Position numbers and translations under genes: made by a program
In this document: positions 9,689 through 14,154 of the stretch, one piece after another
Numbering within the stretch: position 1 is the stretch's first letter
How the letters are laid out: every line of letters starts with the position of its first letter
NCBI GenBank assembly: GCA_046542505.1
Contig: JBKHBH010000051.1
Span: 1-14,203 of the forward strand
Direction of reading: 5' to 3'
DNA length: 14,203 nucleotides
Source: Thermovirgaceae bacterium
GTDB taxonomy: Bacteria > Synergistota > Synergistia > Synergistales > Thermovirgaceae
The notes under the pieces: model-generated
Seen by the model: only the letters and a program-made list of their open reading frames with translations
The model's database searches: none
What the model was told of the DNA's origin: nothing

Positions 9689-9883
9689 ATGAAGAACAAG
9701 AACTTCACGCTCGACACGAATTCCGAACTCCGAAAGCGGGCCGCACGACTGGCAGCCGAAGGAGAAACGTTTTGCGCGCGACGTGCCTGGTGTGACCTGG
9801 CGGAGGAGGCGGCTTCCCGCAGAGACTGGGTCCTGGCGGAATATGCCTATAAACGTGGATTGGGGTTACGGACGCTGTGGTGA
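9689..9883 (+). CDS. 64-aa helical hypothetical protein, probably leaderless and coupled to sfsA
   Basis: Fills the gap before sfsA; stop overlaps the sfsA GTG (GTGA at 9880-9883); extended -10 TGCTAGACT ends 6 nt before the ATG; no SD. Confidence 0.55.
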   Translation: MKNKNFTLDTNSELRKRAARLAAEGETFCARRAWCDLAEEAASRRDWVLAEYAYKRGLGLRTLW

Positions 9884-11055
9884 GAAAACTTTCCGGTTAC
9901 AGCCGGCCTCCTGCCCTGTACCGGGCAGCCCGAGGTGAGCTTGTCAGGGGCGATTTCCTCTTTCGGCCGAACCGTTTTGCAGTGATCTGCGAAACGCCCG
10001 GCGGGCCTATCCGGGCCTACCTACCGAACCCCGGCAGACTCCGGGAACTGCTCCTCCCGGGTGCTGTGCTCTTGCTGGAGAAGACCCAAAGAAAGGGAAA
10101 GCGGACCACTGAATATACCGCCGTTGCCGCTGAAACCGCCCGAGGCCCTGTCATGCTTCATACCCACAGGACGAACGACGCAGCGGAGCACCTGTTGCGG
10201 GAAGGCCTTGTCCCCGGGTGGGAGGACCTGTCCGTCCTCCGGCGCGAGGCGGCCTTTGGCGGAAGCCGTTTCGATTTTCTTCTGGATACGCCCGAAGGCC
10301 CTGTCCCTGCGGAGGTGAAATCCTGCACGCTCTTTGGAAAGAGAATGGCCATGTTTCCCGACGCGCCCTCCCTGCGGGCAACCCGGCATGTCCTTCACCT
10401 GGCGGAGATGAAAGGACCAGGCCTGAAACCCAAGGTCCTGTTTCTTGTCCAGTCGGGTTTGATGGAGTTCTTTCTTCCCGACTTTCACACCGACTTCGAG
10501 TTTTCCAGAACCCTTTTCAATTCCAGAAACGATATCGACATCAAGGCCGTCGGCGTCGAATGGAATGACGACCTCGAGATGCCTGCCAGGGCACGGGAAC
10601 TCGAGATCCCCTGGCAGATTTACGAAAAACACGGGATCGACGGCGGGTGCTATCTGCTCATCCTGAAGCTCGACGAAGAAATCCGAATCGGTGTTGGTGC
10701 CCTTGGGCAGATCGATTTCGCGTCCGGGTATTATTGCTACGTCGGGTCGGCAATAAGGAACCTGAAGGCCCGGATGTCGAGACATCTCCGGCGCCGGAAG
10801 AATTTCCACTGGCATGTCGACTACCTGAGAGAGCATTGCGATGTAGTGGTCTGCCTGCCGGTCAGATCGGCGGATCCTCTCGAGTGCGACCTTGCCGGTG
10901 CCGTAGGTGCCATCGCCGGGTCCTCCACGTCTTGCTTCGGCTCTTCCGATTGCACCTGTCCCTCGCACCTGTTTTACTTTTCAGCAAATCCATTGAATAA
11001 TCCGGGATTTATCGACATCCTTCTGGATTTCCGAATCGACAGACTTCTTGAATGA
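9877..11055 (+). CDS. sfsA: SfsA DNA/RNA nuclease-family protein fused to a C-terminal GIY-YIG (DUF123) domain
   Basis: RPNRF, LPNPGRLRELL, SRFDFLL, EVKSCTL, FPDAPSLRATRH are SfsA motifs; C-terminal GCYLLIL...GYYCYVGSA...RH...HWHVDYL...E...FGSSDCTCPSHL is DUF123/GIY-YIG. Start may be GTG 9880. Confidence 0.9.
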   Translation: MVRKLSGYSRPPALYRAARGELVRGDFLFRPNRFAVICETPGGPIRAYLPNPGRLRELLLPGAVLLLEKTQRKGKRTTEYTAVAAETARGPVMLHTHRTNDAAEHLLREGLVPGWEDLSVLRREAAFGGSRFDFLLDTPEGPVPAEVKSCTLFGKRMAMFPDAPSLRATRHVLHLAEMKGPGLKPKVLFLVQSGLMEFFLPDFHTDFEFSRTLFNSRNDIDIKAVGVEWNDDLEMPARARELEIPWQIYEKHGIDGGCYLLILKLDEEIRIGVGALGQIDFASGYYCYVGSAIRNLKARMSRHLRRRKNFHWHVDYLREHCDVVVCLPVRSADPLECDLAGAVGAIAGSSTSCFGSSDCTCPSHLFYFSANPLNNPGFIDILLDFRIDRLLE

Positions 11056-11083: not shown

Positions 11084-11119
11084 TTGACTCTTGTTGGTAA
11101 TGTGGTAATATAGCCACAT
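11084..11119 (+). promoter_or_regulatory. ars operon promoter with overlapping putative ArsR operator
   Basis: TTGACT (11084-11089) - 16 nt - TAATAT (11106-11111) with extended TG; inverted repeat ATGTGG-N8-CCACAT (11100-11119) straddles the -10. Confidence 0.72.
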
Positions 11120-11139: not shown

Positions 11140-11460
11140 ATGACGCTTACAGAAAAAAAGGTCAGGATTTTCAAGGCCATGGCTCACCCTGTCCGGCTTT
11201 CCATCGTTGAAAGACTCGCCGAAGGGGAACGTTGCGTCTGCGATATCGCGGAATGGTTCGATTGCGACAGGACGACCATCAGCAAACACCTTTCGATCCT
11301 GAAAAACACCGGCGTCATAATCGACCGCAAGGAAGGCCTCAACGTGCACTATTCGCTTCACGCCACATGCCTGATTCCCCTTCTTGAATGTCTGGAAGGT
11401 ACCTTGCGGGAAGATGTCCGGAAGGAATACGAAAGTTGCTGTGGCGTACAAGATCAATAG
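11140..11460 (+). CDS. arsR: ArsR/SmtB family metalloregulatory repressor
   Basis: AAGGAGG RBS; FKAMAHPVRLSI, ERCVCDI, TISKHLSILKNTG winged-helix motifs; C-terminal CC. Confidence 0.93.
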   Translation: MTLTEKKVRIFKAMAHPVRLSIVERLAEGERCVCDIAEWFDCDRTTISKHLSILKNTGVIIDRKEGLNVHYSLHATCLIPLLECLEGTLREDVRKEYESCCGVQDQ

Positions 11461-11485: not shown

Positions 11486-11734
11486 ATGCATAAGATCCAG
11501 ATCCTGGGCACAGGGTGCCCGAAATGTAAAAAGCTTGCTGAAACAGCGGAAAATGCCGCCGAACAAGCCGGCATGGAATACGAGATCGTCAAGGTGACCG
11601 ACATCAACCAGATCATGGATTTTGGTGTCATCATGACGCCGGGACTGGCACTGGACGGGAAGGTCCTGTTCACCGGGAAGGTGCCTTCCGTTGACGAAGT
11701 TGTAAAACACCTGAAAAAGGCCGCGGGGAACTGA
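11486..11734 (+). CDS. Small redox-active disulfide protein (MTH895/TM0996-type thioredoxin family)
   Basis: ATG 11486 after GGAGGGAAGGG; KIQILGTGCPKC, GVIMTPGLALDGKV, GKVPS motifs; 82 aa; usual neighbour of DUF318 permeases. Confidence 0.92.
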   Translation: MHKIQILGTGCPKCKKLAETAENAAEQAGMEYEIVKVTDINQIMDFGVIMTPGLALDGKVLFTGKVPSVDEVVKHLKKAAGN

Positions 11735-11769: not shown

Positions 11770-12933
11770 GTGAGCGATAAAAGGAAGCTTTTCTGGCTTG
11801 CGGCGGCCTTTGTCCTGTTTTACTACATGCCAGCCGGAAACAACCGCGTCCAGTCAGGGGCCGTCGAGGCCGTGGCGATGATGCACGAATATGCCCGGGA
11901 ACATGTCCTGTTGTGCCTCGTGCCTGCATTCTTCATTGCAGGGGCAATAAGCGTTTTTGTGAGCGCCCAGTCGGTGATGAAATACCTGGGCGGACAGGCC
12001 CACAAGGTCGTTGCCTATTCGGTTGCCGCCGTATCGGGAACGGTGCTTGCCGTCTGCTCCTGCACGGTACTGCCCCTGTTTGCCGGAATTTACAAGCGGG
12101 GAGCAGGGCTCGGCCCGGCCACGGCCTTTCTGTACTCCGGTCCAGCCATTAATGTTCTGGCCATCATCCTGACGGCGCGGATTCTGGGCGTTCAGCTCGG
12201 GATCGCCAGGGCTGTGGGCGCCATCGTTTTCAGCGTTCTGATCGGGAGTGCCATGGCTTTTCTGTTCAACCGGGAAGAAGCCGAGCGGCAGGGAAACTTT
12301 GCAGGATCGGAAGATGACATTGATGAAAGACCCCTCTGGCAGACGGTGTGGCACATGGCCTCCATGGTGGTTTTTCTGGTCTTTGCCAACTGGGCGGCTC
12401 CGAAGGAACCCACCGGCTTGTGGTCGACTTTGTACGACATCAAGTGGTACCTGGCGGGAGCAGCATTTTTGAGCGTGGTCCTGTCGACCTTCAAATGGTT
12501 TAACAGCGAAGAGAGAATGTCCTGGTTTGAATCGACCAAAAGCTATGCCCTGCAGGTGATGCCCCTTCTGTTCGCAGGAGTTCTCGTGGCCGGGTTCCTG
12601 CTTGGTCGCCCAGGAGAAGAGGCGCTCATACCTTCGAGGTTCGTCGCCTCCCTTGTTGGGGGTAACGGACTCTTCGCCAATTTTTTTGCTTCCCTCGCGG
12701 GGGCCTTCATGTATTTCGCGACGTTGACGGAAGTGCCCATTCTGCAGGGGCTCATTGGATCCGGGATGGGGCAGGGACCTGCCCTCGCTCTTCTTCTGGC
12801 CGGGCCGGCCCTTTCATTGCCCAACATGCTGGTTATCCGCGGAGTTTTGGGGACGAAAAAAACACTGGCCTACGTGGGTCTCGTGGTGGCCATGTCCACT
12901 GCGGCGGGCCTGGTCTATGGAACCTTTGCGTGA
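11770..12933 (+). CDS. arsP: ArsP/DUF318 family permease
   Basis: Polytopic; AVCSCTVLP, FLYSGPAIN, FMYFATLTEVPI, LLLAGPALSLP motifs of DUF318 permeases; lies between arsR/trx and arsC. Confidence 0.85.
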   Translation: MSDKRKLFWLAAAFVLFYYMPAGNNRVQSGAVEAVAMMHEYAREHVLLCLVPAFFIAGAISVFVSAQSVMKYLGGQAHKVVAYSVAAVSGTVLAVCSCTVLPLFAGIYKRGAGLGPATAFLYSGPAINVLAIILTARILGVQLGIARAVGAIVFSVLIGSAMAFLFNREEAERQGNFAGSEDDIDERPLWQTVWHMASMVVFLVFANWAAPKEPTGLWSTLYDIKWYLAGAAFLSVVLSTFKWFNSEERMSWFESTKSYALQVMPLLFAGVLVAGFLLGRPGEEALIPSRFVASLVGGNGLFANFFASLAGAFMYFATLTEVPILQGLIGSGMGQGPALALLLAGPALSLPNMLVIRGVLGTKKTLAYVGLVVAMSTAAGLVYGTFA

Positions 12934-12956: not shown

Positions 12957-13382
12957 ATGACTGAAAAAATACGGGTGCTGTTTCTGTGCACGGGAAACTC
13001 CTGCCGGAGCCAGATGGCTGAAGGATGGGCGAAGGCGCTCAAGGATGACGAAATCGATGCTTTTTCCGCGGGGACAAGGCCCGCGGGGATCAACCCGAAG
13101 GCGATCCAGGTCATGGCCGAGGCGGGGGTGGACATGGCGGGGCAACAGAGCACCCATGTGGAAGAATACCTCGACGGGCAATTCGACGTGGTCATCACTC
13201 TTTGCGGTGACGCGAGGGACACCTGCCCGGTGTTTCCGGGAGCCGTCAGGGTGATCCATCGAGGTTTCGACGACCCGGCCCGGGCTGAAGGCACAAAGGA
13301 AGAAATCCTGGAGGTTTTCAGGCGCGTGAGGGACGAGATCCGGGATTTTGTGTCCGCCATGCCTGGAAACCTGATGGAGTGA
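12957..13382 (+). CDS. arsC: Arsenate reductase ArsC, thioredoxin-coupled LMW-PTPase family
   Basis: LFLCTGNSCRSQMAEG P-loop; second and third cysteines in ITLCGDARDTCPVFPG; FDDPA; FRRVRDEI; ATG 12957 after GAGGG. Confidence 0.93.
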   Translation: MTEKIRVLFLCTGNSCRSQMAEGWAKALKDDEIDAFSAGTRPAGINPKAIQVMAEAGVDMAGQQSTHVEEYLDGQFDVVITLCGDARDTCPVFPGAVRVIHRGFDDPARAEGTKEEILEVFRRVRDEIRDFVSAMPGNLME

Positions 13383-13397
13383 TCAGGGGGAAAGATC

Positions 13398-13721
13398 ATG
13401 AGCACCGTCAGGGTGACCTCGAATTACTGGCTTGACCGGCTCAGACGAAAAAGCGATGGTTTCAGGATAGAAGTTCAAACGAACATCGTCGGCTGATGAA
13501 TGGCTTACAGGGGCCCGGCGGGCCTTCCCGAACCTCCAGGTGGCAAGGATATCGCGCAGTACGAGGTTTTTCACGTGGCCGGCGAAAGGCTGACATGCTG
13601 GATCCATAAGGAAGCGTTAAAGATATTCCGCGAACAGGGGCCGCTACCCGATGGGGCATATCTGTTTTTTGCGGAAGGAGCGGGACGACTGCGCCTTTTC
13701 TTTGAAGACGGGCTTCCATGA
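13398..13721 (+). CDS. Candidate 107-aa selenoprotein with tandem Sec-Sec (in-frame TGA TGA at 13494-13499); HesB/IscA-like vicinal Cys/Sec motif protein
   Basis: AGGGGG RBS 7 nt before ATG 13398; MSTVRVTSNYWLDRLRRKSDGFRIEVQTNIVG-TGA-TGA-MAYRGPAGLPEPP... is in frame with track ORF 13500..13721; ATG 13500 lacks an SD; SECIS-like hairpin at 13510-13526. Confidence 0.7.
13510..13526 (+). promoter_or_regulatory. Putative bacterial SECIS element
   Basis: GGGGCCC-GGC-GGGCCUU: 7-bp stem (two G-U), apical loop starting with G; stem begins after a 10-nt spacer behind the second UGA, and 17 and 20 nt separate the two UGAs from the loop. Confidence 0.55.
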
Positions 13722-13776: not shown

Positions 13777-14103
13777 ATGGGGTTTTTGAAAAAATGGTAT
13801 CCCGAGTTTACGGACAGGCTGGATGAGATCGACTCGCTCAGGGAAGAAAAGGGGATCCTTGACGAAAAAACCTATCAATTCATCTGTCTTGCATTGGCCA
13901 TAAGAGGGCGATCGGCTCCCTGCCTCAGGAAGCATTTTCTCGGGGCTCTCGAAGCTGGAGCGACCATGGAGGAAGTGTCCCATGTGGTTGCCCTGACCAT
14001 GAGAGAGGCCGCGGGGAACGATGATTGCTGGATTCACGACGTTATCGGCGATGAAAGGGAACTGATGCGGCAGGCATCCTCAGACTGCTGCTGCAGCCGA
14101 TAG
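13777..14103 (+). CDS. Carboxymuconolactone decarboxylase / AhpD-like family protein with C-terminal CCC
   Basis: AAGGAGGA RBS; LDEKTYQFICLALAI...CLRKHFLGALEAGATMEEV is the CMD/AhpD core; ends SSDCCCSR. Confidence 0.88.
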   Translation: MGFLKKWYPEFTDRLDEIDSLREEKGILDEKTYQFICLALAIRGRSAPCLRKHFLGALEAGATMEEVSHVVALTMREAAGNDDCWIHDVIGDERELMRQASSDCCCSR

Positions 14104-14123
14104 GAACGAGCTCTTCGTATTTG

Positions 14124-14154
14124 AAAGCGCCCGCCTTCAGGCGGGCGCTTTTTT
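14124..14154 (+). terminator. Intrinsic terminator ending the ars operon
   Basis: AAAGCGCCCGCC-TTCA-GGCGGGCGCTTT perfect stem running into a T6 tract, 20 nt after the last stop codon. Confidence 0.92.

Follow-up and report, generated by a model that had tools for sequence, protein, structure and literature searches.

The analysed window is a stretch of 14,203 nucleotides (nt) from a Thermovirgaceae bacterium (Synergistota; contig JBKHBH010000051.1 of assembly GCA_046542505.1), and the element examined here is a short reading frame near its end, starting at position 13398, which contains two adjacent TGA codons. The frame opens with an ATG located 15 bases downstream of the stop codon of an arsC gene (TGA, 13380-13382) and preceded by a purine-rich Shine-Dalgarno-like sequence. 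It runs for 32 sense codons to the TGA pair (13494-13499) and, from an ATG at 13500, stays open for a further 73 codons up to a terminal TGA (Table 1). These coordinates, the codon numbers, the ribosome-binding site and the gap after arsC agreed exactly with those given when a hidden selenoprotein was proposed from the letters alone (the original prediction). The remark that the internal ATG has no Shine-Dalgarno sequence was also borne out, as direct sequence reading revealed no GGAGG-like or purine-rich run upstream of ATG 13500. Read with two selenocysteines (Sec, U), the frame contains the motif I-V-G-U-U-M-A-Y, and the region is very probably one gene encoding a cytoplasmic selenoprotein of 107 residues in which both UGAs are translated, as Sec33 and Sec34. 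Assembly contigs from a second study (four runs) spanned the TGA pair with no difference listed; none had 31 letters on both sides of it, so they do not count as bridging.

A six-frame search with the read-through protein covered 261 genomes belonging to the same order, 170 of them of good quality. The protein was matched in 50 genomes, among them 34 of good quality, with 56 matches in total. Exactly two in-frame TGAs were found in 46 matches, which covered query residues 1-107 or about 3-100 and showed homology flanking the pair on both sides; the other ten comprised eight stop-free matches, one with a single TGA (E 0.002) and one, a weak match (E 0.004), with other stops. All 46 double-TGA genes, referred to below as UU genes, were extracted, 28 from loci of the six-frame search and 18 fetched additionally. 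Every one carried I/V-A/V-G-U-U-x-A/V-Y/F at the same aligned position, encoded by TGA-TGA, and TAA or TAG was present at either UGA position in none of the 46. The 32 codons upstream of the pair were conserved at the protein level, with W11, F22 and G32 invariant in an alignment of 30 rows (A1). The pair is followed by Met in 22 UU genes; the other 24 have Thr, Ser or Asn there, so that half of the genes offer no ATG at which translation could restart. Two outcomes named beforehand as contrary to the proposal, homology beginning only at M-A-Y-R-G and orthologues with TAA or TAG, did not appear.

The TGA-free relatives had G-C-C (P0005 of 115 residues, P0006, L034, L112 and L113) or G-F-C (P0004 of 107 residues and L037) at the aligned positions. 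The second position was Cys in all TGA-free full-length forms seen (P0004, P0005, L034, L037, L112 and L113) and the first was either Cys or Phe, an outcome in favour of the original prediction. The Cys-Cys homologues are uninterrupted proteins, 107-116 residues long. Downstream of the pair, the position of Cys67 was also occupied by Cys in 43 of the 46 UU homologues.

The motif followed by the hairpin described below was found in 60 metagenome stretches, corresponding to 49 distinct proteins. In 57 of them, the open frame extends over at least 25 codons ahead of the pair and at least 55 beyond it, the remaining three being cut by the locus end. These 60 loci, as well as 33 named loci used for the analysis of genomic context, were selected with a DNA pattern that includes the stem and are therefore uninformative on the hairpin. 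According to the record titles, nearly all pattern-found relatives came from Synergistales (Synergistaceae, Thermovirgaceae, Acetomicrobium, Aminiphilus), and those from outside the order were single metagenome-assembled genomes of Deltaproteobacteria, Planctomycetota and Eisenbacteria.

Three genomes have both a UU copy and a Cys-Cys copy on one contig, about 3 to 10 kb apart (L096/L034 on G016:C62, L031/L112 on G023:C1 and L099/L113 on G024:C8). On G015:C2, a UU copy was accompanied, about 2.4 kb away, by a TGA-free match covering query residues 29-103 only. The neighbours of the Cys copies, an ArsR-family gene for L034 and a response regulator with AzlC for L112 and L113, provided an uninformative context.

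The G-first-loop hairpin expected to act as the selenocysteine insertion sequence (SECIS) was present in the R-G-P-A-G-L codons of the window gene, where its stem consists of five G-C and two G-U pairs. The base of the stem lies 13 nt past the first UGA and 10 nt past the second, and the loop starts 20 and 17 nt past them, respectively. Both loop distances fall within the UGA-to-loop range of 16-37 nt used by bSECISearch, and the stem distances bracket the 11 nt that separate UGA and hairpin in E. coli fdhF, in keeping with the suggestion that one hairpin is spaced for both codons.

A 7-bp hairpin was retained in all 46 UU genes, within (K/R)-G-P-x-G-L codons. In an alignment of these genes (A3; 46 rows, 44 distinct), 97.1% of the 308 stem cells were paired, and changes on both sides were observed at three of the seven pairs (A-U in 17, G-C in 13 and others at the base; G-C in 42 and A-U in 2; C-G in 39 and G-C in 1). 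The observed pairing or covariation was attained by 0 of 500 shuffles, a count that is not a probability because the sequences are related, and controls in which the 3' arm was slid gave 31-78% paired cells. Codon choice followed the same constraint. The variable loop-closing codon ended in G in all 46 genes despite being one of six codons (GTG, GCG, TCG, GAG, ATG, TTG), and the Pro codon was CCG in 43, giving a loop with an initial G in 44. The two Gly codons of the stem were GGC in 39 of 46 genes each; beyond the stem, the following conserved Gly codon was GGA (27), GGC (8) or GGT (7). The Cys forms read S-V-F-R-G-A-A-A-Y-L-G or E-A-Y-E-S-L-L-G-L in this region and possess neither the G-P-x-G-L codons nor the hairpin, which suggests that G-P-x-G-L is retained mostly for the RNA signal. 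As a single conserved hairpin was detected, 3' of both UGAs, it would have to direct two successive deliveries of Sec-tRNA by SelB, at UGA 13494 and at UGA 13497.

The machinery for such decoding, whose presence in the genome had been set as a check, is encoded in the source assembly (2.14 Mb, 93.5% complete). A tRNA-Sec with the anticodon TCA (76.3 bits), SelA (483 bits), a SelB winged-helix domain within a 652-residue frame adjoining selA, and SelD (345 bits; G000:C74:11170-12102, minus strand) were identified. The selD gene contains one in-frame TGA, so SelD is itself a selenoprotein. Synergistetes have been described as a selenoprotein-rich phylum (PMC5029168). Genome-wide reassignment of TGA was considered and rejected: the true stops of the 46 UU genes were TGA in 24, TAA in 14 and TAG in 7, one gene being cut by a contig end. 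TGA thus serves as a genuine stop, in arsC as well, and is not reassigned.

AlphaFold2 with alignment A1 modelled the read-through product as one domain with a predicted local distance difference test score (pLDDT) of 94.3 and a predicted template modelling score (pTM) of 0.87. Residues 1-31 formed a strand-helix-strand unit and the Sec pair was placed in a turn before strand 35-43, so the model predicts a single alpha/beta domain with the pair in a beta-hairpin turn. Since A1 includes the N-terminal part, the model is in part dependent on the alignment.

Several observations weigh against the double-Sec reading. The hairpin of the window, taken alone, was not unusually stable (minimum free energy -11.7 kcal/mol, z = 0.82; 161 of 200 shuffles folded at least as well), and as it is no stabler than shuffles in this G+C-rich stretch, the comparative evidence alone counts. 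A lower helix (columns 16-18 with 41-43) was 90% paired with no sign of covariation, and the window sequence does not form it; it is not claimed. Spacing is reportedly critical in E. coli fdhF. The window protein had no Pfam or NCBIfam match at E<=1, and a sequence-profile search of the PDB with A1 returned 0 matches at E<=10. The structural matches of the model were weak, with a best Foldseek E of 5e-3 and a TM-score of about 0.4 (top matches IscA-like, 1s98/1r94), and Z of 4.2-3.3 in the first seven VIA-align rows, under the level which that tool states as meaningful.

It is very unlikely that the frame is read through without forming a Sec-Sec pair, either because one UGA is decoded by a near-cognate tRNA (Trp or Cys) or because the full-length protein is only a minor product. 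A SECIS at one fixed spacing may serve one of two codons poorly, as E. coli spacing data would imply, and the sister family NF041239, described below, has Sec at the first position only. Nevertheless, TGC, TGT or TGG would be expected in some homologues if Cys or Trp were meant and none appears among the 46, the Cys-Cys forms have Cys at both positions, the frame is open on both sides in the 57 metagenome loci mentioned above, and the two spacings lie on either side of that of fdhF. Less probable still is the synthesis of two products, a 32-codon upstream frame ending at UGA-UGA and a 73-residue protein made from ATG 13500 by termination-reinitiation, which would fit the TGA-TGA-ATG order of the window and the shortened database entries starting just past the UGAs but conflicts with the 24 homologues that have no ATG there, with an upstream part conserved as protein within one confidently folded domain, with the continuous Cys-Cys homologues and with a covarying hairpin at the place expected of a SECIS.

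With Sec33-Sec34 as the preferred reading, the relation of the protein to known families was evaluated. The proposed link to the NCBIfam 'CC/Se motif family (seleno)protein' (NF041239, Moor_selen_rel) held as a remote relation and failed as membership. NF041239 was matched by 7 of the 30 rows of A1, and the four rows listed scored 12.9-21.3 bits against a cut-off of 40, so the Sec-Sec protein is not a member. A profile comparison (hhalign) with 12 NF041239 members gave a probability of 90.3% (E 1.5e-6). The alignment, of 68 columns, puts Sec33 opposite the Sec of these members and leaves the C-terminal halves out. The two groups share a size of about 100 residues, a strand-helix-strand start, a Gly-Sec turn and a SECIS directly downstream within the open reading frame (ORF), and they co-occur in the same genomes. 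They differ in that the 12 extracted members read I-G-x-G-U-(G/A/C), with one Sec, and in that the NF041239 hairpin is located in A-L-V-E codons and has another sequence. Matches to NF041239 were found in 86 of the 261 genomes and exceeded the cut-off in 10; among the matches listed, none had two TGAs (all had a single TGA or no TGA, except a weak one with other stops). The Sec-Sec family thus forms a distinct, Synergistales-centred sister of NF041239, remotely linked to it, in which the neighbouring residue is also Sec.

A six-frame NF041239 search of the source genome gave no match at the Sec-Sec locus and revealed three relatives with a single TGA each, scoring 25.7-35 bits (below 40), at C93:17315-17560 (minus strand), C112:29524-29751 (minus strand) and C25:5149-5385 (plus strand) of G000. 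These are probably unannotated single-Sec paralogues.

The second proposed affiliation, with HesB/IscA-like proteins, found weak support. All top fold matches in Foldseek and VIA-align were IscA, SufA, DsrR or HI1723, and hhalign with E. coli IscA placed Sec33 on IscA Cys35, over 24 columns only and with a probability of 16% (E 0.0016); the stretch G-C-x-(G)-M-A-Y is shared locally in this weak profile match. The window protein had no match at E<=1 to PF01521 (IscA/SufA/HesB). Likewise, TIGR01911 (HesB-like selenoprotein) was not matched at E<=1 by the protein or its relatives, nor anywhere in the genome at E<=0.1, and a search of the ESM Atlas with the natural Cys-Cys homologue P0005 gave no usable match. 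A-type carriers use three Cys ligands, including a C-terminal Cys-x-Cys that is absent from the Sec-Sec protein, which has an equivalent of the first ligand position only. The IscA-like fold is thus weakly indicated, as a lead and not as membership, the scores being too weak for a claim of homology.

The location of the gene in an arsenic-type operon, as stated in the original prediction, was corroborated by profile matches (Table 1). The Sec-Sec gene is the fifth of six genes in an apparent ArsR-controlled operon, predicted to comprise arsR, an arsE-like thioredoxin gene, an arsP-like permease gene, arsC, the Sec-Sec gene and a CMD-like gene.

Table 1. Sec-Sec gene, its signals and its operon in the window, followed by desulfurase-type genes adjoining the UU gene at two related loci.
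Feature	Coordinates	Strand	Basis
Probable Sec-Sec protein gene, 107 residues (ATG 13398, Sec33, Sec34, stop TGA 13719-13721)	13398-13721	+	Translation, homology of both halves, AlphaFold2
Shine-Dalgarno-like AGGGGGA, 6 nt ahead of ATG 13398	13385-13391	+	Direct sequence reading, purine-rich
First UGA, predicted Sec33	13494-13496	+	TGA in 46/46 homologues; Cys or Phe in TGA-free forms; hhalign
Second UGA, predicted Sec34	13497-13499	+	TGA in 46/46 homologues; Cys in TGA-free full-length forms
SECIS-type hairpin in R-G-P-A-G-L codons	13510-13526	+	7-bp stem 13510-13516/13520-13526, loop GGC 13517-13519
Cys67 codon, candidate third ligand or resolving residue	13596-13598	+	Motif T-C-W-I-H
Promoter-like site ahead of operon	11084-11111	+	Consensus scan, 9/12 with TG extension; pattern match only
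arsR (ArsR/SmtB metalloregulator)	11140-11460	+	PF01022 48.3 bits; NF033788 88.4 bits (cut-off 55)
MTH895/ArsE-family mini-thioredoxin (C-P-K-C)	11486-11734	+	TIGR00412 103.5 bits (cut-off 62)
ArsP-type permease (PF03773)	11770-12933	+	ArsP_1 255 bits
arsC, thioredoxin-coupled arsenate reductase of the low-molecular-weight (LMW) phosphatase type	12957-13382	+	PF01451 69 bits; TIGR02691 160.7 bits, just under cut-off 174.3
CMD/AhpD-like protein with C-terminal Cys-Cys-Cys tail, last operon gene	13777-14103	+	PF02627 30.6 bits
Intrinsic terminator-like hairpin followed by T run	14123-14152	+	13-pair stem with 9 G-C pairs
TIGR01977 neighbour, locus L063	633-1793	+	Profile match
TIGR01977 neighbour, locus L071	191-1348	-	Profile match
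TIGR01977 neighbour, locus L071	3176-4033	-	Profile match

The wider context was scanned with Pfam on 148 ORFs of the 33 named pattern-found loci. The ORFs were chosen greedily by length, without overlap and with a minimum of 80 residues, so that small genes in G+C-rich DNA can be hidden. ArsR, SBF/ACR3, ArsP_1 or LMW-ArsC was present within 2 kb in 19 of the 33 loci, all seven SBF neighbours tested passed the acr3 equivalog cut-off, and the order arsR, acr3, UU gene recurred in L061, L073, L078, L081 and L093. Other neighbours were thioredoxin-type proteins (10 loci), Usp (6), DsbD_TM (4) and CDF (3).

From this ars-gene neighbourhood, we infer a role in arsenic handling. The function tentatively favoured is binding of As(III), or of another soft metalloid, by the vicinal diselenol, perhaps aided by Cys67, with subsequent buffering or transfer to a permease: As(III) produced by ArsC would be bound by the reduced Sec pair and then stored or handed off for efflux. 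Such a protein would perform an ArsD-like job by means of an unrelated fold. ArsD of arsRDABC operons is an As(III) metallochaperone that binds through a vicinal Cys pair and a third Cys. The likeness is functional only, and consists in a small soluble ars-operon protein with a vicinal chalcogen pair and one more conserved Cys; the window protein has Sec in place of Cys, no arsA partner is located in the window, and no ArsD model was among the Pfam or NCBIfam matches of the protein at E<=1. The full combination, a Se2S site of the diselenol and Cys67 capturing As(III) for efflux and one SECIS recruiting SelB twice in a row for adjacent UGAs, is conceivable and is put forward with more reserve.

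Three findings count against an arsenic function. Cys67 is absent from 3 of the 46 UU homologues, no ars marker was found within 2 kb in 14 of the 33 loci, and L063 and L071, which come from two species, instead adjoin genes of the cysteine desulfurase family TIGR01977, for which selenocysteine lyase SclA was the second-best model. The latter neighbours hint at a link to sulfur or selenium trafficking.

A redox shuttle, rather than a holder of As(III), is a somewhat unlikely alternative. Diselenide/diselenol cycling at low potential would then serve ArsC or a thiol relay of the ars island, or the reduction of organoarsenicals, by analogy with the vicinal Cys-Sec of mammalian thioredoxin reductase. 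The operon of the window, with its ArsE-family thioredoxin, thioredoxin-coupled ArsC and AhpD-like protein, would suit such a role, as would the Thioredoxin or Thioredoxin_3 genes near UU genes (L064, L066, L070, L072, L078, L079, L081, L082, L085 and L090) and the DsbD_TM genes (L072, L077, L082 and L083); however, the protein has no known oxidoreductase fold or CxxC-type motif, and its nearest folds are carriers, not reductases. It is improbable that the protein acts as an A-type (IscA-like) carrier of sulfur, selenium or Fe-S, receiving persulfide or perselenide from a NifS/SclA-like enzyme, with the ars linkage being secondary. The identity of the top fold matches, the alignment of Sec33 with IscA Cys35 and the neighbours of L063 and L071 speak for a carrier, but a desulfurase neighbour was found in 2 of 33 loci against 19 with ars genes, and the missing family matches, the lack of the C-terminal Cys-x-Cys and fold scores in the noise range argue against it.

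Capture of As(III) by the Sec pair therefore stays the tentatively preferred function, and the conserved link to arsR, acr3, arsP and arsC would point to selenium-arsenic chemistry within a resistance pathway. If the full combination set out above is true, the protein would be the first metalloid chaperone based on selenium, and bacteria would have their first documented double Sec insertion at adjacent codons. In bacteria, Sec insertion depends on a hairpin whose distance from the UGA is tightly constrained, and one hairpin for two UGAs would be a natural test of the spacing tolerance of SelB and the ribosome.

Public records of the family are all named 'hypothetical protein', and UU members are deposited only as pieces of 63-83 residues, as anticipated from the shortening of such genes by standard gene callers. 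The RefSeq entry of the cultured Aminiphilus circumscriptus is a piece of 70 residues, and cultured carriers of the UU gene exist. A word-indexed protein search returned two shortened matches of 82 residues only, and an exhaustive search of representatives gave 8 matches, mostly shortened pieces. As UU genes are annotated in this form and no U-U motif was found in the catalogues covered, selenoproteome counts for Synergistota are too low.

A bacterial SECIS-dependent selenoprotein that is sister to a catalogued family is of a known kind; its adjacent Sec-Sec pair was found in none of the texts searched. Table 1 of a 2022 review of prokaryotic selenoproteins gives 87 families with the motifs UxxC, CxxU, UxxU and CxU, and lists a Moorella hypothetical protein and no UU (PMC9312934). 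The main texts of deep-Sep (2025) and BSepDB (2026) do not mention double, adjacent, tandem or consecutive Sec, and their supplementary tables could list one. A 2022 preprint on eight selenoprotein families describes CU and CC motifs and a SaoP permease with two Sec placed for a diselenide; no description of the two as adjacent was found in it. No report of a bacterial U-U was found in the open-access full-text literature.

The closest parallel is eukaryotic. For eukaryotes, a first case of consecutive Sec-Sec was claimed in a 2020 study of algae, in PDI_e with the motif G-U-G-U-U (PMC7539508). As in the window gene, the pair is predicted from UGA-UGA, and a vicinal diselenol/diselenide is described there only as a prediction (PMC7539508). 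The algal protein differs in being eukaryotic, in its thioredoxin fold and in having its SECIS in the 3' untranslated region, where spacing does not matter (PMC7539508), whereas the SECIS of the Sec-Sec gene is bacterial and lies inside the ORF, 10-13 nt past the codons.

Some minor features of the surroundings were also noted. In the CMD/AhpD-like gene of the window, a D-C-W-I-H stretch echoes the T-C-W-I-H around Cys67, and the encoded protein bears a weak likeness to the GSU3128 family (seleno)protein (32.8 bits, cut-off 110). A CMD gene is found next to the UU gene in L062 and L076 as well. A variant context was observed in L070, L079 and L092, where the UU gene follows a Usp gene and a CDF cation-efflux gene. 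In L070 and L092 it is followed by a gene for a small 2x[4Fe-4S] ferredoxin, and in L070 and L079 thioredoxin and ArsP-like permease genes are located further on. Upstream of the operon in the window, a plus-strand ORF of 392 codons (9877-11055) combines SfsA_N and SfsA nuclease domains with DUF123, and it may be a fusion, or two separate genes may have been read together.

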